A stretch of DNA of 64,000 nucleotides. Origin: an uncultured Actinomycetes bacterium. GTDB taxonomy: Bacteria; Actinomycetota; Thermoleophilia; UBA2241. Shown here piece after piece: positions 32,149-40,078 of the stretch. The notes below the pieces were generated by a model. The model was given only the letters and a program-made list of their open reading frames with translations. It was not told the DNA's origin and searched no databases. Position numbers and translations under genes: made by a program. The stretch spans positions 32,001-96,000 of the forward strand of contig CAVRZA010000002.1 in assembly GCA_963725665.1 (NCBI GenBank). The letters run 5' to 3'. The number at the start of each line of letters is the position of its first letter. Position 1 is the first letter of the stretch.

Positions 32149-32186
32149 GCTGCGGGCGGCAGGCCGTTCGGCCTGCCGCCCGCAGC
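32149..32186. terminator. 17-bp perfect GC-rich hairpin downstream of the second MFS gene
   Basis: GCTGCGGGCGGCAGGCC-GTTC-GGCCTGCCGCCCGCAGC. Confidence 0.75.
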
Positions 32187-32191
32187 CGCGC

Positions 32192-33424
32192 TCAGATCTC
32201 GCGCACCCGCGCCGTTGCGAGCCCGATGAGGCCGGGCAGGCCGACGATGAGCCCAGCGACGACGAACAGGCCTTGCACGCTGTAGATGCCGGCGAGCGCG
32301 CCGCCGACGAGGATCGAGAGGGCGTAGAAGCCCTGCGTGAGAGCGAAGCGGACACCCCAGACGCGGCCGCGCAGGTGCTCGGGCACCGTCTCCTGGAAGA
32401 ACGTGTCGATCGAGATAAGCGCGGCCGCGTTGGCCACTCCCAGCGCGAGGAACGCGACCAGGATCGTCGTCAGGTTGTGAAGCAAGCCCACGAAGACGAG
32501 CGAAGCGCCCATGACGCCCAGGCCGACCGTCATGGCGTAGCCCTTGCGGACGCGTGACCCCAGGCCGGCGAGCAGGGCGGATCCGCCGAGGTACCCGACT
32601 CCGATGGCGGCCTCCATGAGGCCGAAGGCCTTGGTGCCCTGCCCCAAGACGTCCACGGCGAGCAGGAACGTGAGCGGGTAGGCGGCGCCGAGCCCGAGCA
32701 CGGCCGCGACGACCAGCACGGTGTTCGCCGCGAGCTGGCTGTGACCGAACAGGAATCGGATGCCCTCCATGATCTCGGCGCCCACGTGGCGAGCATGGCG
32801 AAGGGCGGCCTCGCGCACCGGGGGCACGTAGACCATAAGCGCGAGGGCCGCGGCTGAGACGAGGAAGGTGCCGCTGTCGGCCGCGAAGGCGATCCGTGTC
32901 GAGAAGTAGTAGGCGACGAGACCGGCCACCGAATAGCCGATGATCTCGCTCAGGTTCTCGCCCATCGTCAGCAGCGAGTTGGCGCGCACGAGCTGCCGTC
33001 GCTGCACGATGTCGGGCAGGAGAGAGAGCTTACAGGGATCAAAGAAGACGGCGACGCTCGCCATGGCGAAGCTGATGGCGAACACGAAGGGCAGCCCCGG
33101 ATGCGCGACAAGGGCCACGGTCAGGACAAGCCCTGCGCGCACCAGATCGGCGACGATCATCAGGCGGCGCTTGTTGAAGCGATCGATGACAACGCCGGCG
33201 AACGGCCCAAACAGGACATACGGCAGCGTGTACAGCGCCAGGACCACGCCTGTGGAGAAGGCCGAGCCGGTCTTCTGGTAGACGAGCCAAGGGAAGGCGA
33301 CCATGGCGAGCCGGTCGCCGAGCTGCGAGACGACCTGACCCGTCCAGAGCAGCAGGAAGTTGCGGTTGGCGGAAAGCCTCTGGGTCGGGAGTGCCGCGAT
33401 GGTGTCCGACGTCGCCACGCGCAA
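32192..33424 (-). CDS. MFS exporter (DHA3/MefA-EntS-like)
   Basis: NRNFLLLWTGQVVSQLGD, AGVVIDRFNKRRLMIVADLVR, QETVPEHLRGRV. Confidence 0.9.
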   Translation of the reverse strand: MRVATSDTIAALPTQRLSANRNFLLLWTGQVVSQLGDRLAMVAFPWLVYQKTGSAFSTGVVLALYTLPYVLFGPFAGVVIDRFNKRRLMIVADLVRAGLVLTVALVAHPGLPFVFAISFAMASVAVFFDPCKLSLLPDIVQRRQLVRANSLLTMGENLSEIIGYSVAGLVAYYFSTRIAFAADSGTFLVSAAALALMVYVPPVREAALRHARHVGAEIMEGIRFLFGHSQLAANTVLVVAAVLGLGAAYPLTFLLAVDVLGQGTKAFGLMEAAIGVGYLGGSALLAGLGSRVRKGYAMTVGLGVMGASLVFVGLLHNLTTILVAFLALGVANAAALISIDTFFQETVPEHLRGRVWGVRFALTQGFYALSILVGGALAGIYSVQGLFVVAGLIVGLPGLIGLATARVREI

Positions 33425-33502
33425 GTTGTACCGGTTCGACTCTCGGTTGACAAACGCGAGCCCCAGTTTGCAGGGAGAGTGTTGTCAGCGCGCCAGAAGT
33501 GT

Positions 33503-33532
33503 TGTCAATGTTGGCGATAGGGAGGGTTGACA
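33503..33532. promoter_or_regulatory. BirA-type operator TGTCAAT-N16-GTTGACA
   Basis: Matches TGTYAAC-N14-16-GTTRACA; extra half sites at 33445 and 33483 (AGTGTTGTCA direct repeat, 20-nt period). Confidence 0.55.
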
Positions 33533-33649
33533 TTCATCGTATTGGCCAGTAGCGGATTCGTGGCCGGCGTAGTCACGGCTGGATACGATGCTCCCACGCT
33601 GATCGTTGTATCAGCGTTTGGTGCTCACACTGCAACGGAGGGGCCACTC

Positions 33650-33679
33650 ATGCGTCGTGAGAACGTCAGACTGCACTAG
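33650..33679 (+). CDS. 9-aa micro-ORF MRRENVRLH
   Basis: Strong SD GGAGGGG 6 nt upstream of ATG; same RLH C-terminus as the next peptide. Confidence 0.45.
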   Translation: MRRENVRLH

Positions 33680-33700
33680 CTTCGCCGCAGGCAACGAACT

Positions 33701-33778
33701 ATGAGGAAGATCGAGACAGTACTGGCGTCAATCCTCATGGCGCTAGTGTCTTCGGGGGGGAGCGCCAGGCTCCACTGA
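33701..33778 (+). CDS. 25-aa peptide MRKIETVLASILMALVSSGGSARLH (signal-peptide-like precursor)
   Basis: Basic N-terminus, hydrophobic core, GG then SARLH; immediately upstream of the HD-GYP gene; absent from ORF track. Confidence 0.65.
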   Translation: MRKIETVLASILMALVSSGGSARLH

Positions 33779-33835
33779 TTTCCCAGCCTTAAGAGTCGCA
33801 GGTATCATGCCGATAGGCTTACTATCTGCGGCGGG

Positions 33836-35272
33836 GTGATTTTGGCTGGGCAAAACCGATTGTTCACCGCGTACGCCGGCGCGATGCTCACGGCATCAAT
33901 CGTCGGCTTCCTTGTCGCATCTTGGCATGCGCACCTGCTTGACTTGCCCCTATCGGGCTTCGCCACCGTTGGGCTGTTCACTCTCCTCGCGATAATCGCA
34001 GAAGAGCTCTCCGTTGTTGTTTCTGACCGCGTTACGATCACGGCTAGCAACCTCCCCCTTCTGCTCGGAATCATGTTTCTCGGCACCCCGCGCGCTGTTC
34101 TCACGGCGGCTCTCGTCGGGCTGTGGGGGAGTTGGCGCGAGGAGTCCGCTCCACTGGCCGTGTTCAATGTGTCCAACTTCATGCTCACCACGTTGCTCGC
34201 GTCGCTGGCGTTCGAGGGGCTCCGTTCAACAACGGGGTTCAGCCTATCCGAGGTCTCGGTCGAGCTGCTTCTTGCGGGCGCTGTCGCTGGGCTCATCTAT
34301 CAGGTTGGTGCTCTTGCTTTTCTCAGCGTGGGAGCTCGGCTCAGATATGGCCGATCGCTGCGCCGGTTCTGGCGAAGCGAACTCGCCCCGCTAGGCCAGT
34401 CTCTTGCCATCCTCACGGGCCTCGGGTTGGCCGTCGCAGCGGTCTACGCGCAAGCGGGGGTGATCGCCGTTGCTCTGCTCTTCATCCCCCTCTTTGCCGC
34501 CCAGTACATGTTCAAACTGCTCGTGGAGCAGAGGCGTCTCCTGGCCGAACAGAGGCAGCTGTCCGACCAGTACCTCGAGATGAACATCGGGCTCGCTGCG
34601 GCGATGGTGGTGCTCCTCGACAGCAAGGATGAGTACACCGCCAGTCACTCGGCAGCAGTCGCCATGTACTGCAGGGACATGGCCCTGTCCATGGGGATGT
34701 CCGAGGACGAGGCTGAAGCCCTGCACCTGGCCGGTCTGCTGCACGATCTCGGAAAGGTCGGGACGCCGGACGCCATCCTCAGGAAGGACGGCAAGCTCGA
34801 CCCCGACGAATGGGCGTTCATCCACGAGCATCCGGCCAAGGGTGCCGAGGTGCTCTCTCACCTTGCCGCCTACAAGGACGTAGCCGACATCGTGCGCTAT
34901 CACCACGAACGTCTCGACGGCAGTGGCTACCCCTACGGGATCCGCGATGGGCAGATCCCCGAGCTCAGCAAGATGCTGGCGGTCGCGGACGCCTACCACG
35001 CCATGACCTCGGACAGGCCCTACCGGCCGGCGCGGAGCTCGTTTGACGCGCTGAAGGAGTTGCGGCGCATGTCCGGTGTGAGCCTGGACGGCAAATACGT
35101 CGAGCTCCTGGCCTCCATTTTGCGGGACAAGGATCTCGCCTACCGGGAGGGCACCTCGACCGACTTCATGGGCGAGTACGAGCGCGGGCGGATCAACCTC
35201 CGCCTCAGGGCGGACGCGATCGCTCAGATCAGCGAGACGATGCGGGCACGCCGAGACCCAGCCGTAGGCTGA
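33836..35272 (+). CDS. membrane-bound HD-GYP c-di-GMP phosphodiesterase with multi-TM sensor domain
   Basis: ~6-7 N-terminal TMs, coiled linker, KDEYTASHS, LLHDLGK, HHERLDGSGYPYG, VADAYHAMTSDRPYR. Confidence 0.93.
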   Translation: MILAGQNRLFTAYAGAMLTASIVGFLVASWHAHLLDLPLSGFATVGLFTLLAIIAEELSVVVSDRVTITASNLPLLLGIMFLGTPRAVLTAALVGLWGSWREESAPLAVFNVSNFMLTTLLASLAFEGLRSTTGFSLSEVSVELLLAGAVAGLIYQVGALAFLSVGARLRYGRSLRRFWRSELAPLGQSLAILTGLGLAVAAVYAQAGVIAVALLFIPLFAAQYMFKLLVEQRRLLAEQRQLSDQYLEMNIGLAAAMVVLLDSKDEYTASHSAAVAMYCRDMALSMGMSEDEAEALHLAGLLHDLGKVGTPDAILRKDGKLDPDEWAFIHEHPAKGAEVLSHLAAYKDVADIVRYHHERLDGSGYPYGIRDGQIPELSKMLAVADAYHAMTSDRPYRPARSSFDALKELRRMSGVSLDGKYVELLASILRDKDLAYREGTSTDFMGEYERGRINLRLRADAIAQISETMRARRDPAVG

Positions 35273-35783
35273 CCAGAGCAGAGGCGACGAAGCTCGCAGC
35301 CAACGCCTTCACCAGATCCACGGGCACGAAGGGGACCACCCCTTCGAGGAGAACGGTGCGCACGTCTCCAATGTGAAGCTGCCACGCCAGCCACGTCGCG
35401 CCGAGGGCGTAGATGGGCACGAGTGCGACCACGGTGGCGAGTAGCAGACGCAGACGAGTCCCTCCACGCCCCGCCAGCCATCCGGCAAGGGCAGCAGCCG
35501 CGACGAAGCCGAACAGATAGCCCCCCGTAGGCCCGAGGAGCACGCCGAGGCCGGAAGTCGCCTGCGCGTACACCGGAGCCACAAGACCCAGCAGCAAGTA
35601 CAGCGCAACGGCAAGAGCCCCGAGGCGGGGGCCGAGAACGACGCCCGCGAGCAGCACGAAGAACACCTGCAGCGTGAACGGGACGGGGCCCCAGAACGGC
35701 AGCGCAAAGAGGCCGCCGACCGCGACGAGCGCGGCGAAGAGGGCGGCCATGACGAGAGCGCGTGTCGAACCTGAAGCAGGCAA
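35229..35783 (-). CDS. bioY: biotin transporter S-component BioY
   Basis: PVPFTLQ, GPTGGYLFGF, IYALG..WL, PFVPVDLVK. Confidence 0.93.
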   Translation of the reverse strand: MPASGSTRALVMAALFAALVAVGGLFALPFWGPVPFTLQVFFVLLAGVVLGPRLGALAVALYLLLGLVAPVYAQATSGLGVLLGPTGGYLFGFVAAAALAGWLAGRGGTRLRLLLATVVALVPIYALGATWLAWQLHIGDVRTVLLEGVVPFVPVDLVKALAASFVASALVSLRLGLGVPASSR

Positions 35784-35845
35784 TTGTCAACGCGGCCTGT
35801 GGCAGACCGCGTTGACAATGTAAGAGGAGACACGCCCTCAGTCAA
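35783..35845 (-). promoter_or_regulatory. bioY promoter (TTGACT-N17-TACATT) overlapping BirA-like palindrome ATTGTCAACGCGG-N11-CCGCGTTGACAAT
   Basis: Perfect 13-bp arms at 35783-35795 and 35807-35819, directly before the start codon. Confidence 0.75.
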
Positions 35846-35850
35846 CGACC

Positions 35851-36867
35851 CTAGTGGAGGGTGACCTCCCCCGCGTGGAATCGACGAATATGCCGGTGCG
35901 GAAGCTCCACCAGCAAAGCGCCGCGGTCGTCGATGCCGGCGGCCTCACCGATGACGGGCCCCTCGCGCGTGAGGACGCTCACGCTGCGATGCAACAGATA
36001 GTCACGTGCACGGAAGCCTCGCAGGGGCTTCTCGAAGCCGTTGGCCGCCGCATCTAGGTAGCATTTCTCCAGGGCGAGCAGGATGCGCGCGAGAAGGACG
36101 CTCCTATCCACAGGCCTCCCCGTCGCGGTCTTCAAGGAGGTAGCCGAGCGGCGGAGGGTGACGGGGAGCTCGGCGTACTCCGTGTTCACGTTGATGCCGA
36201 CGCCCACAACGACCCAGTTGACCTCGTCGAACTCGCCCGACACCTCGAGCAGGATCCCCCCGACCTTGCGGTCGTTCACTATGAGGTCGTTGGGCCACTT
36301 GACCTGGACGGGGGTCTTTGTCTGCCCCTCGATGCCCTCGGCCGTGGCGGTCGCGGCGACGAGAGTGAGGAGATGGGCCTCTGTCATCGGCAGCCGCGGC
36401 CGCAGGACGACCGAGAAGAGCAATCCCTTGCCGGCCGGCGATGTCCACTGACGGCCCAGTCGACCACGACCGGCCGACTGGTGCTCGGCGATCACCACGG
36501 TGCCTTCCGGAGCACCGCCGCTTGCCAGCCTCTTGGCCTCGCTGTTTGTCGACTCGATCTCGTCGTAGTACCTGAAAGAATGCCCGAACAACGTGTTCTG
36601 CATGAGTTTGGCGACGACCGGCATGACCAGCCGGCAGGGCTCCTCCTCGAGTCTGTAGCCGCGCCTCGACACACCAAGGATCCGGTAGCCGCGGCGCCGC
36701 AGCGAGTTGATGTGCTTGTGTACTGCGTTCCGGGAGATGCCGAGGCTGCCGCTTATCGCTTGGCCGGAGACAAAGCCGGGACTGTCACGAAGAATGTCGA
36801 TCACTGTCTTCTTGCGATGGCTCATCGTTCCCGATTCGACGTGTACCACTGACGCTGACGACTCCAT
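35851..36867 (-). CDS. birA: bifunctional biotin-protein ligase/repressor (class II, N-terminal HTH)
   Basis: VSGQAIS..LGISRNAVHKHINSLR, STN, QSAGRGRLGRQW, KWPNDL, KVGGIL, GVGINVN; RBS GGAGG. Confidence 0.95.
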   Translation of the reverse strand: MESSASVVHVESGTMSHRKKTVIDILRDSPGFVSGQAISGSLGISRNAVHKHINSLRRRGYRILGVSRRGYRLEEEPCRLVMPVVAKLMQNTLFGHSFRYYDEIESTNSEAKRLASGGAPEGTVVIAEHQSAGRGRLGRQWTSPAGKGLLFSVVLRPRLPMTEAHLLTLVAATATAEGIEGQTKTPVQVKWPNDLIVNDRKVGGILLEVSGEFDEVNWVVVGVGINVNTEYAELPVTLRRSATSLKTATGRPVDRSVLLARILLALEKCYLDAAANGFEKPLRGFRARDYLLHRSVSVLTREGPVIGEAAGIDDRGALLVELPHRHIRRFHAGEVTLH

Positions 36868-36922
36868 CTCTCCTCCTCGCTCGCAATTGAGGCCATGGTA
36901 GGAAGATGGAGATCGACCGTAA

Positions 36923-39850
36923 TCAAACCTCGGTTGTATCTGCGGTGGCCTGCGGTTGTGGAGTCTGGCGCGGTTCGTCCCGACAGTCGTTCCGCGCCTC
37001 GCTCGCGGATTCCCTATACAGCAGCACAGCATGAACCCTGTCCGTGACGCCCACCTTGCCGAAGATACGATTGACGTGCGTCTTGACAGTTCCCGGAGCT
37101 AGGAAGAGCCTCTTGGCAATCTCGTCGTTGCGCATTCCCTCTGCCATCATCGACAGAATCTCACGCTCCCTCTTCGTCAGCTGGGTCAAGAACCCAGCAG
37201 GGGAATTCGCACGATCTGACTTCGACGCCATTTGTCCTGCTAGACGTCGTACGGAGGCAAAGCGACTTCTTGTCGCCTTGTGCAGAAGCACGTCCAAAGA
37301 CTGCGTTGGCATCCTGCTCCCGGCACTCTCCAGTGCAGCTGACGCGACCTCTGGGTTCACTGCGAGCGCTTTCATCATGAGTGGCAGCCCGTTGGGATGG
37401 ATTGCCACTGTGTCAAGAAGCGACCGACCCACTGAGTGGGGCAGCTTCTGGAGCAAATCGAGACAGAGGACGGGCTCGCCGCAAAGCTCCTGGCTCAGGA
37501 AGTGAACGTGGCCTCGTTCGAGTTGGCTCTCAACCACTTCTTCGAGCGATTGGATAGCCGCTTCTCGGTTTCCTCGACGCCAACTCAAAACCCCTGTGAA
37601 GAAGTCGCATTTCAGCTGTACGAATTCAAGGTTGCTTGCGCGACTCCGTGCCGCGACTGCGTGAAGATCGCGGAAGGGACGATTCGAATCCCCTTGGAGT
37701 CCACGAGTGAAATGGAGATTCGCGAGGCAAGTGAAGTGGGGATACGGAAAGCGTTCCGACACCAATTCGGATCCCCGCTTGTAGCAGGCGTGTGCTTCGT
37801 CGAGATTACCGGTGCGGCGGCAAGCCGTGCCCATGTGGGAGAGGGTTAGAGCGCGAACTAGACCGTCGTCCGCTGCTTGTGGGGCCTCGGACGCTGTCTT
37901 GACCAGCTGGTAGCCACTTTCGAAATCACCCCTACTGACCAGAACCTGGCCCAGAGAATCCAGCGTCATGTGCTCCAGATGGTGGAAGCCGCACCGAGTC
38001 AAGAGCCCAAGAGACTCGCGGATCAACTCCTCCGCCTCGCGATAGCGACCCAAATGCATCTCCATGTTGCCGAGCACGTTGAGGAATGACGCTTCCAAGA
38101 TGCGAGGGCCGTGTTCACGCAGTCGAGTAAGTGCGGAGCGTCCCTCCTCCGCGGCGCGCAGGAAGTAGCCCCGGAAGTAGTCGCAGTACGCTCGCATGCA
38201 GGCTATTCGAAGCTCTTCAGGTGCGGTCGCGTCTACCAGGGCTTCCTCCGCTTGTGACCACAGTGATTCGCACTCCGCCCACTGCGCCTCGAGCATAAGA
38301 GCTGCACCGAGGCTAATGAGGGAGTGAGCTTTCTTGGTCCCATCCGGTGCGTACTTGATGGCCCGGCGACACTCAGCGGCGGCGGCTACAGTGTCGCCTT
38401 TCCAGAACAGAGCTGATTCAATCGCAGACGCGGCGTGGTATCGGCCCCACCTGTCCCTCCTTTGGGCGAAGGAGGCTTCTGCTGAGCGGAAGATGGCGAT
38501 GGCTTCGTCGAACCTCCCGTCGCGCAGGTCGATCTGGCCGGCGAGAAGCAGTGCCCAGACGCTCCCTCGCCTCATGTCATTGGGCAGTCGAGCAAGCCAC
38601 GATCGCATGCTGTCGAGGGTCGAGTTCTCGAGGGCTAGCTCACCCGCCTTGGCAAGACAATCGAGGGCGAGCGTCGGCTCATTTGCGGACAAGTAGATCT
38701 CGACGGCGACTCCAGTGTCGCCCGCTCGTTCCATGACGCTGGCGGTCTTCAGCTGCAGGTCGTGGAACTCGCGCGCGCCGTCCTCTTGGGCGCACTTCTG
38801 GCGCAAGTAGTCGCGAAAGAGAGGATGGTAGCGGTAGGTGAGGCGCGCGGCATCCGCGAAGGTGAAGACCTGGTTCTTCTCGAGGTAGTCGAGGATGCGC
38901 TCGGCGTGGTCGCCCCCTGTGATCTCGTTGGCGAGGGCTGCCGTCACGTAGTCGAGACAGCTTGTGCGTTTCAGGAAGCCCCGCGTCTCATCACTTTCTC
39001 GCTGATAGACCTGTTCTGCGAGATACGAGAAGACGTCGCTCTTCAGTCGCGGATCTCCCAGCGCCACCTCGATGGCGGGCAGTCCGTCCCACTGCAGGGC
39101 TTTGCAGGCGAGCACCACGCTGGCTGGCCAGCCCTCCGTGAGCTCCTCGAGACGTGTCGCAGCAGCCACAGGTATCTCGACGTCTGCGCGCAACTTGAAC
39201 ACCGTCCTGATCTGTCCGGCATCGAGCCGCAGGTCTTCGTAGCGGAGCTCGGCGATGTCGTCGTCTAGCCGCAGTTTCGCGGTCGAGAACGAAGGCTCGA
39301 ACCGCGTGAGAAGGACAACGTGAACGTGGCCAGGCAGGTTGGCGAGTAGGAAATCGAGGGCTTTGTTGAGTTCACGTGAGGCCGAGGCTTCGTGGTAGTC
39401 ATCGAGGACGAGGTGAAGCGTCAGCTTCACCTCGTCCTCGAGCTCGTGGACGAACAAGGCAAGCAGTTCAGGGACGGTGATCGGCACCTCGCGCGAGTTG
39501 GAGAGGCGTTCGATGACCACCTCGCCGAAGCTTGCGACCTGTCGGCGAATCGCTTCAGTGAGCGAGGCCACTAGTACGATCGGGTCGTGATCGAGGACGT
39601 CGAGCTTGTACCAGGCCGTCGTCCAATGGAGTCGCCCGGCGGCTTCAGCGATCAGCGTACTCTTGCCGTAGCCCGCGGGCGCCGAGACGAGCAGCAACCT
39701 CCGCTGTGCTCCCTCGGCGACCTTCTCGAGTAGGCCGGCTTTGATGCTTGCCTGGCCGACGGAGGGCGGTGAGAGCTTGGAGGCGACAAGCGTGGGGCTG
39801 CCGGAGGCCGGCGAAGCGGGGGGACGCGCAGCATCTCGGGTGCCGGGCAT
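36923..39850 (-). CDS. MalT-like STAND NTPase-TPR-LuxR transcriptional regulator
   Basis: SAPAGYGKST Walker A, LVLDDYH, TEGWP, YRYHPLFRDYL, TPR-like helices, LTKREREIL..N.EIA..LFLAPGTVKTHV; extended -10 TGCTATACT at 39870-39862. Confidence 0.93.
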   Translation of the reverse strand: MPGTRDAARPPASPASGSPTLVASKLSPPSVGQASIKAGLLEKVAEGAQRRLLLVSAPAGYGKSTLIAEAAGRLHWTTAWYKLDVLDHDPIVLVASLTEAIRRQVASFGEVVIERLSNSREVPITVPELLALFVHELEDEVKLTLHLVLDDYHEASASRELNKALDFLLANLPGHVHVVLLTRFEPSFSTAKLRLDDDIAELRYEDLRLDAGQIRTVFKLRADVEIPVAAATRLEELTEGWPASVVLACKALQWDGLPAIEVALGDPRLKSDVFSYLAEQVYQRESDETRGFLKRTSCLDYVTAALANEITGGDHAERILDYLEKNQVFTFADAARLTYRYHPLFRDYLRQKCAQEDGAREFHDLQLKTASVMERAGDTGVAVEIYLSANEPTLALDCLAKAGELALENSTLDSMRSWLARLPNDMRRGSVWALLLAGQIDLRDGRFDEAIAIFRSAEASFAQRRDRWGRYHAASAIESALFWKGDTVAAAAECRRAIKYAPDGTKKAHSLISLGAALMLEAQWAECESLWSQAEEALVDATAPEELRIACMRAYCDYFRGYFLRAAEEGRSALTRLREHGPRILEASFLNVLGNMEMHLGRYREAEELIRESLGLLTRCGFHHLEHMTLDSLGQVLVSRGDFESGYQLVKTASEAPQAADDGLVRALTLSHMGTACRRTGNLDEAHACYKRGSELVSERFPYPHFTCLANLHFTRGLQGDSNRPFRDLHAVAARSRASNLEFVQLKCDFFTGVLSWRRGNREAAIQSLEEVVESQLERGHVHFLSQELCGEPVLCLDLLQKLPHSVGRSLLDTVAIHPNGLPLMMKALAVNPEVASAALESAGSRMPTQSLDVLLHKATRSRFASVRRLAGQMASKSDRANSPAGFLTQLTKREREILSMMAEGMRNDEIAKRLFLAPGTVKTHVNRIFGKVGVTDRVHAVLLYRESASEARNDCRDEPRQTPQPQATADTTEV

Positions 39851-40078
39851 AAGAGGAAGCCAGTATAGCAGCGGACCGTTGGCTGGCTTGCCGGTTCGGC
39901 GATCCCGCGGTTGACAATAGAACCTGGGTGGGAGTCACGATTCAACGCGGGCGGTCCTAGGCGGTGGAGTCGGGGCTGCGCCTGCGATCGCGTCTCCGCG
40001 CTGGCGCCGTTGTGAAGTCGGAGTAGCGTTGTCTGCTATACTCCTCGTCGTAGAAACGCCCACTACATCCGCACGACA

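Follow-up and report, generated by a model that had tools for sequence, protein, structure and literature searches.

Which genes of a crowded block in an actinobacterial genome belong together, and what does a gene of only 25 codons do directly in front of a membrane-bound HD-GYP protein? Both questions are raised by a stretch of 64,000 nucleotides (hereafter, the window) on contig CAVRZA010000002.1, from a metagenome-assembled genome of 3.7 Mb with a guanine-cytosine (GC) content of about 68%. The original prediction, made from this DNA, had proposed a composite peptide-signalling locus in which micro-peptides, the HD-GYP protein, a major facilitator superfamily (MFS) exporter, a MalT-like regulator, and the biotin genes birA and bioY would act as one unit. 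Part of that proposal survives, as a conserved peptide gene is indeed coupled to the HD-GYP membrane domain, while the biotin, MalT-like, and MFS genes are not supported as one unit with it. The block is better described as three separable things: a biotin unit, an HdgA-type phosphodiesterase gene, and the 25-codon gene. Comparative genomics supports, far beyond the window, the idea that the HD-GYP membrane sensor has a peptide partner not described before.

The 25-codon gene and the enzyme that follows it

The genes at the centre of the question lie one behind the other on the same strand:

33650-33679, + strand: leader open reading frame (ORF) of 9 codons, ending R-L-H, with a GGAGG-like ribosome-binding site upstream
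33701-33778, + strand: micro-protein gene of 25 codons, with a basic N-terminus, an uncharged core, S-G-G, and a tail ending R-L-H
33836-35272, + strand: HdgA-type multi-transmembrane (TM) HD-GYP protein (Pfam HD_5 136.4 bits, cut-off 27.2)

The two tiny ORFs announced by the original prediction are, thus, both present. For comparison, 29 loci of the window's family were used, along with 21 family loci taken with long flanks (the wide loci). The 25-codon ORF is intact in 25 of the 29, frameshifted in one, degenerate in two, and was not found in the last. Over the 21 sequences of exactly 25 codons, the entropy summed over codon positions 1, 2, and 3 amounts to 18.9, 10.2, and 31.8, respectively, and the one invariant glycine has a near-maximally variable third codon position (entropy 1.89 of 2.0). 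Judged by this codon pattern, the ORF is a genuine gene. The tail of the peptide is near-invariant over ten genera, in which the HD-GYP proteins are just 58-66% identical. When the whole genome of the window was scanned for the peptide design, six ORFs were returned; the one at this locus is the sole one beside an HD-GYP gene, and the remaining five do not have the family tail. The expectation that HD-GYP homologs keep a conserved peptide ORF upstream, thus, held in the family, and it held in the class and the phylum as well (see below).

The leader ORF behaves differently in its distribution. In 23 of the 24 assessable family loci, the 150 nt before the 25-codon gene hold an ORF ending in K/R-[ILVM]-H, against 0/24 on the antisense strand and an expectation of 0.04 from shuffles. 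It has a strong ribosome-binding site and 8-9 codons, or 14-24 codons when two or three tandem units, each ending in the tripeptide, follow one another. It repeats the C-terminal K/R-hydrophobic-H of the 25-amino-acid (aa) peptide, and the middle tail residue partly co-varies between the two products (Met with Met in all four Met genomes), a match that is confounded by kinship. As Lys to Arg swaps use unrelated codons, selection acts on the amino acid. Tail-sharing mini-ORFs were absent from the other clades (0/50), and no conserved RNA structure or attenuator was found to span the leader (alifold energy -0.5). From these comparisons, the 9-codon ORF is conserved in, and specific to, the window's family; it suggests that the tail is the part that is read, by marking it as a unit that would matter alone.

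The translation of the HD-GYP gene has intact HD and GYP motifs, and its hydropathy profile contains about seven hydrophobic segments in a MASE9-like arrangement. Orthologs, found in 58 of the 61 related genomes searched, are 58-66% identical. The gene is predicted to encode an HdgA-type, MASE9-like phosphodiesterase of cyclic di-guanosine monophosphate (c-di-GMP). HdgA and HdgB are the MASE9-HD-GYP pair of Streptomyces venezuelae (PMC6205966; bioRxiv 10.1101/2021.11.05.467447). In the accessible part of the first of these sources, the authors state that the activating signals of Streptomyces HdgA are probably missing (PMC6205966), while the accessible part of the MASE9-defining paper argues for ligand binding within the membrane (bioRxiv 10.1101/2021.11.05.467447).

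The peptide family across the class and the phylum

A membrane-domain profile based on the window's protein (A2) was searched against 401 genomes each at the level of the class and of the phylum, and matched in 209 and 173 of them, respectively; these tallies include a few genomes flagged as unpublished, from which no locus was taken. In the regions upstream, the sense strand was scanned for small ORFs whose products begin basic, continue with a hydrophobic run, and end in a short tail. ORFs of the same design were found 40-400 nt upstream of homologous HD-GYP genes, on the sense strand, and encode peptides of 23-33 aa with the layout basic, 17-19 uncharged residues, small-G-G/A, basic, hydrophobic, x. 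Across Actinomycetota, they stand 40-270 nt ahead of HdgA-type genes. Their frequency per group was as follows:

Second family of the class: peptide ORF in 9 of 11 loci
Third family of the class: 3 of 4 loci
Fourth family of the class: 0 of 5 loci
Paralog clade within the window's family, with two peptide genes each: 10 of 10 loci
Distant larger paralogs: 0 of 7 loci
Other classes of the phylum (GC 0.30-0.68): 27 of 40 loci
Control, antisense strand of the 40 other-class loci: 0 of 40
Control, shuffles of the 40 other-class loci: 0.85 of 40 expected

The homologs retrieved with A2 reach up to 51.5 bits for MASE9 (36.9 bits for L219, loci being cited here by number), and 23 of the 40 other-class loci pass the Pfam cut-off; the peptide is present at 20 of those 23. 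Among larger MASE9 proteins (604-1270 aa), it was found at only 1 of 18 loci (L295, 677 aa), and further small ones had it in 2/2 cases. On this distribution, the peptide is coupled to HdgA-type genes across Actinomycetota, and specifically to small MASE9 proteins. Tandem, near-identical peptide genes can precede one MASE9 gene, as in L301, where the two are identical, and in L295, where they are one residue apart.

The uncharged core counts 17 or 19 residues in 71 of 86 peptides, with K or R at both borders. Counted back from the C-terminal basic residue, positions -5 to -3 hold mostly small residues (A/S, G, G/A), and positions -4 and -3 always do. The tail consists of a basic residue, a hydrophobic or aromatic one, and then one residue or none; tails are uniform inside clades and different between clades. 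The hydrophobic part is conserved in a position-specific manner phylum-wide, and the helical periodicity of small residues in the core is weak.

Gene neighbourhoods differ between clades, the peptide being the single constant neighbour. The clade-specific ones include a ribosome hibernation factor, comF-like genes, a second degenerate HD-GYP paralog, DUF5317, and a response regulator. In the other-class loci L263-L281, a paralog of about 410-450 aa, scoring lower for HD_5, usually comes after the HdgA-type gene; a conserved ORF of 215 aa precedes that gene in 12/20 of these loci, and a gene for a ribosome hibernation factor occurs in 6/20. Two distant clades have a DUF5317 membrane-protein gene behind the HD-GYP gene (L206-L215, the two-peptide paralogs, and L265, L274, L276, and L280), and in L209 an S24/S26-like peptidase gene adjoins it. 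DUF5317 was not mentioned in any paper of the literature searched.

The peptides appear to be undescribed, as the original prediction had held of the system, since they match no database family and no paper found, as far as the accessible literature goes. Pfam and NCBIfam scans of ten peptides, with E-values up to 10, returned no family and only weak signal-peptide-like noise; in a collection of about 15 billion proteins, eight of ten exact sequences do not occur; and a protein-atlas search with a 32-aa paralog peptide gave only unnamed 'hypothetical' clusters. No paper pairing a peptide or small protein with MASE9, HdgA, or HD-GYP was found in the accessible parts of the literature. Two known identities were considered and rejected: most peptides do not have the lipobox Cys of a lipoprotein, and a double-glycine bacteriocin leader is at odds with the absence of a nearby C39 transporter and with the mere 3-5 residues that follow GG.

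Promoters, biotin unit, and neighbouring genes

The further features of the locus are the following:

32149-32184, directly 3' of the MFS stop codon: perfect hairpin with a 16-bp stem and a 4-nt loop
32192-33424, - strand: MFS_1/MFS_3 exporter, DHA3-like, related to EntS, Tap, and Mef (Pfam MFS_3 112.5 bits, cut-off 27)
33503-33532, MFS/peptide intergenic region: inverted repeat TGTCAA-N18-TTGACA
33584-33589, + strand: candidate housekeeping-type -10 box TAnnnT for the micro-ORF transcript, inferred from a block conserved in relatives
33788-33815, + strand: predicted WhiG/FliA-type promoter CTTAAG-N15-GCCGATA, with the HD-GYP start codon 20 nt further downstream
35229-35783, - strand: BioY biotin transporter S-component (Pfam BioY 133.3 bits)
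35785-35817, immediately upstream of bioY: BirA operator, palindrome TGTCAAC-N19-GTTGACA
35851-36867, - strand: class-II BirA with HTH_11, BPL_LplA_LipB, and BPL_C (Pfam)
36923-39850, - strand: MalT-like/LAL regulator with STAND NTPase AAA_16, TPR_MalT, and GerE helix-turn-helix (HTH) domains (Pfam)

Every gene named by the original prediction was confirmed by Pfam, and the perfect left-hand hairpin, probably a terminator without a U-tract, lies where it had been described. The claim of a lower-GC block was also borne out: GC is 0.57-0.67 inside the block (33.5-39.5 kb) versus 0.68-0.71 in the flanks, and GC at third codon positions (GC3) is 0.78-0.80 for HD-GYP, BioY, and BirA and below 0.75 for the MalT-like regulator, compared with about 0.9 in the flanks. 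The MalT-like gene (36923-39850) has the lowest GC3 of the block. The HD-GYP and bioY genes are convergent, and their 3' ends overlap by 44 nt (35229-35272) in the longest-ORF calls. At the gathering threshold, Rfam detected nothing but one tRNA in the window.

The HD-GYP gene has its own predicted promoter of the WhiG/FliA type. The motif CT(A/C)AAG-N15/16-GCCGATA occurs 46-100 nt upstream of the HD-GYP ORF in 20 of the 29 family loci; the window's copy has an exact -10 box and, as -35 box, TTAA, which deviates from the consensus T(A/C)AA. A second copy, on the opposite strand and aimed at the MFS gene, is present in 17/25 loci and decayed in the window. The motif matches a WhiG consensus given in the accessible part of a recent preprint (bioRxiv 10.64898/2026.01.14.699351), and the genome encodes a WhiG/FliA sigma factor (280 bits, above cut-off). 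Genome-wide, the motif has 16 sites, versus 0-3 for permuted -35 boxes, and 11 of the 13 sites in one genome scan stand 8-70 nt upstream of an ORF, with cell-wall genes among those ORFs. The putative WhiG regulon covered by these 13 sites includes C1:540053-540079, C6:440218-440243, and C8:226090-226116; sites were found just upstream of genes for a Cache-PAS-GGDEF-EAL protein, an NlpC/P60 PcsB-like hydrolase, VanW, DUF4388, and a FemAB-like acetyltransferase, and one lies 313 nt from rho. A flagellar regulon was rejected, as no flagellin was found in the window's genome, which is 97.5% complete.

In the two-peptide paralog clade, the motif precedes both peptide genes in 10/10 loci, so that, by promoter position, peptides and enzyme are there one WhiG-type unit. 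In the accessible parts of the sources, WhiG-dependent promoters of diguanylate cyclase and phosphodiesterase genes are known in Rubrobacter (PMC8325347), and c-di-GMP arms the anti-sigma factor RsiG against WhiG in Actinomycetota (PMC8325347; bioRxiv 10.64898/2026.01.14.699351). A WhiG-promoted phosphodiesterase would, therefore, sit in a feedback loop, and this part of the locus is a new instance of a known feedback circuit.

The biotin genes form a unit of their own. By their sequences, birA, the operator, and bioY are an ordinary class-II BirA unit, in which the probable BirA start is an in-frame ATG at 36867 behind a GAGGAGG site. Of the 21 wide family loci, 15 likewise have the box TGTCAAC-N19-GTTGACA in their birA-bioY intergenic region. 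BirA follows HD-GYP in 28/29 family loci, and birA and bioY were absent from every peptide/HD-GYP locus examined outside the family. Membership of these genes in a peptide system is, thus, not sustained, considering that they have their own operator and that their adjacency to HD-GYP is confined to a family colinear over more than 25 kb. Related TGTCAA/TTGACA motifs had been claimed for three intergenic regions; two were recovered (33503-33532 and 35785-35817, against 0.05 expected), and the third, upstream of the regulator, has one half-site only, near 39915. The repeat at 33503-33532 is not kept as a palindrome in relatives, for which reason a BirA site in the window's peptide region was rejected.

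Other repeats surround the MFS promoter. In relatives, the WhiG-type promoter directed at the MFS gene has its -10 box flanked by an inverted repeat, (C/T)GTCAACC-N12-14-GGTTGAC. The half-sites of this repeat are those of the BirA box, and the block lies just 5' of the leader ORF (L002-L029) and occurs also in L112, L119, L123, and L124; the right half is kept in only about one third of the loci, and the element is decayed in the window. A conserved motif AAGTGTTGTC(C/A)A stands near the MFS start (about 33484-33510 in the window), in several relatives within the palindrome TGTTGYC-N6-GRCAACA; the block may be a candidate operator for a regulator of the MFS gene.

The MFS gene is divergently upstream of HD-GYP in 25/29 family loci, the other four being cut by contig ends. 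Its nearest NCBIfam models, TIGR00900 (231 bits), EntS, Tap, and Mef, all score below their cut-offs. Within the class, MFS genes take three different arrangements: in a peptide-less family, 4/4 wide loci (L136, L138, L141, and L142) have an MFS_3-like gene immediately downstream of the HD-GYP homolog and in the same orientation, as do two paralog loci, L146 and L148. This downstream arrangement hints at an HD-GYP/MFS link that would not need the peptide. No MFS gene was found beside the peptide loci of other classes. The exporter can hardly be called the peptide's companion, as its adjacency tracks the HD-GYP gene, including where no peptide was found.

The regulator scores 66.6 bits for GerE, 45.3 for TPR_MalT (cut-off 45), and 23.3 for AAA_16 (below 32.6); the NCBIfam MalT model gives 248 bits, below its equivalog cut-off of 537. 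On these scores, it is a member of the MalT/LAL family and not a MalT ortholog. It is present in 20 of the 21 wide loci, with 36-50% identity versus 60-85% for its neighbours. As it evolves faster than the peptide tail, a co-evolving receptor-ligand pair is argued against. Elsewhere, MalT-like genes follow the HD-GYP homolog in 3/3 loci of another family and in 2/20 other-class loci, that is, they recur by the module only in some clades, and the proposal that this regulator is the peptide's receptor was not supported. The 21 wide loci are colinear over more than 25 kb on both sides; gene order is conserved within the family and not outside it, so that the predicted adjacency of bioY, birA, MalT, and MFS did not extend beyond the family, except for MFS and MalT-like genes in some clades.

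Mechanism, rival explanations, and known systems

Starting from what was observed directly (a real gene, its coupling to HD-GYP, the promoter motifs, and the biotin unit), we consider it slightly better than an even bet that the peptide is a dedicated membrane-level partner or ligand of the MASE9 sensor, gating c-di-GMP hydrolysis. The micro-protein would insert into the membrane, N-terminus on the cytoplasmic side; docked there on the intramembrane MASE9 sensor, whether as co-sensor or as ligand, it would set the phosphodiesterase activity. In the window's family, the 9-codon leader would supply K/R-hydrophobic-H without a helix. A membrane span is proposed because the uncharged core of 17 or 19 residues is flanked by K/R, and the conserved tail, together with the position-specific core, would favour such a partner.

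Several observations weigh on the other side. The window protein scores 21.6 bits for MASE9 (PF20972), below the Pfam cut-off of 24.3. The peptide is degenerate or absent, yet HD-GYP intact, in three family loci (L016, L017, and L024), and it is intact next to frameshifted HD-GYP genes in L027-L029; peptide and enzyme are, therefore, not always lost together. In the window's family, the WhiG-type promoter sits between the two genes, which, thus, need not be co-transcribed. The strictly hydrophobic part of the peptide is about 14 residues long and followed by the small A/S-G-G/A stretch, which also fits a cleavable signal peptide releasing a C-terminal peptide of 4-6 residues. The tail-only leader ORF, finally, is easier to explain if the tail is a free ligand, and the short hydrophobic run, the small-residue stretch, and this ORF would together favour a released peptide.

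Release is the core of the most substantial alternative, a minority possibility that must be taken seriously and that lies near the original idea, minus the biotin link. The 25-aa product would be the precursor of a secreted oligopeptide, cut after A/S-G-G/A or otherwise processed and exported (e.g., by the MFS protein), freeing a C-terminal signal of 4-6 residues; this would be sensed outside by MASE9 or, after import, by the MalT-like tetratricopeptide repeat (TPR) protein, as an autocrine or quorum signal lowering c-di-GMP. The layout resembles the n-h-c regions of a signal peptide, with a basic start, about 14 hydrophobic residues, and small residues at -3/-1-like positions, and one peptide weakly matches a lipoprotein signal-peptide model. 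As a rule, SHP and PrgQ-type pheromones of Firmicutes derive from precursors of 22-25 aa that begin Lys-rich and continue with a hydrophobic body. In the leader ORF, the tail motif occurs by itself, sometimes in two or three tandem copies, as a self-contained unit would; tails are clade-specific and uniform within a clade; and some clades again have MFS and LAL genes close to the module. Nevertheless, pheromone systems usually diversify, whereas this tail is near-invariant over ten genera, and the hydrophobic part is conserved position by position phylum-wide. The leader product has no export signal. MFS adjacency occurs where no peptide does (4/4 wide loci of one family) and is missing at other-class peptide loci, and the LAL regulator drifts to 36-50% identity within a family in which the tail stays constant. 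Tail conservation over ten genera would, thus, fit a resident partner better than a pheromone, while the tail-only mini-ORF seems to keep the ligand idea alive.

The remaining explanations are weaker. It is decidedly improbable that the micro-protein serves another membrane component (MFS, the DUF5317 protein, or membrane insertion and quality control), proximity to HD-GYP reflecting co-regulation only: DUF5317 does follow HD-GYP in the two-peptide clade and in 4/20 other-class loci, and MFS genes do take three arrangements within the class, but most peptide loci have neither gene, while the HdgA-type gene is always there, by construction of the sample, and the only one of the six ORFs of this design in the window's genome that is HD-GYP-adjacent is the one at this locus, the five others having no such tail. 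Cis-acting upstream ORFs, in which stalling at K/R-hydrophobic-H-stop would control HD-GYP expression and the peptides would be functionless, could account for two consecutive small ORFs that share a final tripeptide and stop, the first with a strong ribosome-binding site. This is very improbable, given the lack of a conserved leader RNA structure (alifold -0.5), the separate promoter between the ORFs and HD-GYP in the family, the restriction of tail-sharing mini-ORFs to that family (0/50 in other clades), and a fixed-length hydrophobic core phylum-wide, which would be unexpected for a 25-codon stalling leader that stays in the ribosomal tunnel. As for the full composite, with peptide, HD-GYP, MFS, MalT-like, and BirA/BioY genes as one unit tied to biotin status, gene order is conserved in the whole family, the BirA-box-like inverted repeat of several relatives flanks the -10 box of the MFS-directed promoter, and the window has its weaker palindrome at 33503-33532. 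It is, nevertheless, improbable in the extreme: colinearity over more than 25 kb on both sides makes adjacency unspecific, neither birA nor bioY occurs at any examined peptide/HD-GYP locus outside the family, a canonical operator of its own precedes bioY, and the second palindrome is not conserved as such.

The membrane-partner reading can be carried further, into territory that we regard as unlikely. HdgA-type MASE9 phosphodiesterases throughout Actinomycetota, perhaps the silent Streptomyces HdgA too, would find in the peptide their missing input; in the window's family, the K-hydrophobic-H tail would be an autonomous ligand, also encoded, helix-free and up to threefold in tandem, by the leader ORF, released via the WhiG-controlled MFS exporter, and resetting c-di-GMP and the RsiG-WhiG switch. 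If true, actinobacteria would have their first signalling system based on a linear peptide, and c-di-GMP enzymes their first member gated by a peptide. Should the peptide gate the phosphodiesterase at all, a micro-protein or peptide signal would be linked to the c-di-GMP/RsiG/WhiG developmental switch of actinobacteria. The signals of most MASE-type membrane domains in c-di-GMP enzymes are unknown, and the micro-protein offers a concrete, synthesisable candidate partner. The peptide family also shows how much gene callers miss.

Compared with known systems, the locus resembles HdgA/HdgB in part. No upstream peptide is mentioned for the Streptomyces pair in the accessible parts of its two descriptions (PMC6205966; bioRxiv 10.1101/2021.11.05.467447). 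The architecture is the same as far as those descriptions go, with about six to seven TM segments and HD-GYP in 420-500 aa, and HdgA-type genes of other classes are often followed by a second degenerate paralog, as in hdgA-hdgB. With the RsiG-WhiG switch, as accessibly described, the locus shares T(A/C)AA-N16-GCCGATA before c-di-GMP turnover genes in a non-flagellated actinobacterium with a WhiG homolog; it differs by the -35 box TTAA of the window, the likeness resting on the motif and the sigma gene.

In the class-II BirA model, an HTH-bearing biotin ligase represses via a bioO operator at bioY. Here too, such a ligase adjoins bioY, with TGTCAAC...GTTGACA at the bioY promoter, and nothing notable sets the unit apart. 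The RRNPP systems comprise the SHP/Rgg, PrgQ/PrgX, and Phr/Rap peptide pheromones of Firmicutes. Their precursors and the window's peptide are alike in length (22-25 aa), in starting Lys/Arg-rich, and in having a hydrophobic body; in both, the C-terminal residues would hold the functional information, and there may be a dedicated exporter. The differences concern the phylum, Actinomycetota, the tail, which is hydrophilic and conserved, whereas theirs is hydrophobic and diversifying, and the next gene, a membrane phosphodiesterase instead of a cytosolic TPR receptor. The RRNPP pairing is, thus, not seen: the peptide gene pairs with HD-GYP, while the TPR regulator lies three genes away and is absent at most peptide loci outside two families (present at 2/20 other-class loci).

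Closest to the proposed mode of action are the small membrane-protein regulators MgrB and SafA, which act on PhoQ, and AcrZ, which acts on AcrB. Like them, the peptide is a very small single-helix protein that would bind the membrane part of a larger sensor or transporter. Unlike them, it is about half the size (23-33 aa), its presumed target would be a MASE9 c-di-GMP phosphodiesterase and not a histidine kinase, and its gene stands directly upstream of that presumed target phylum-wide.

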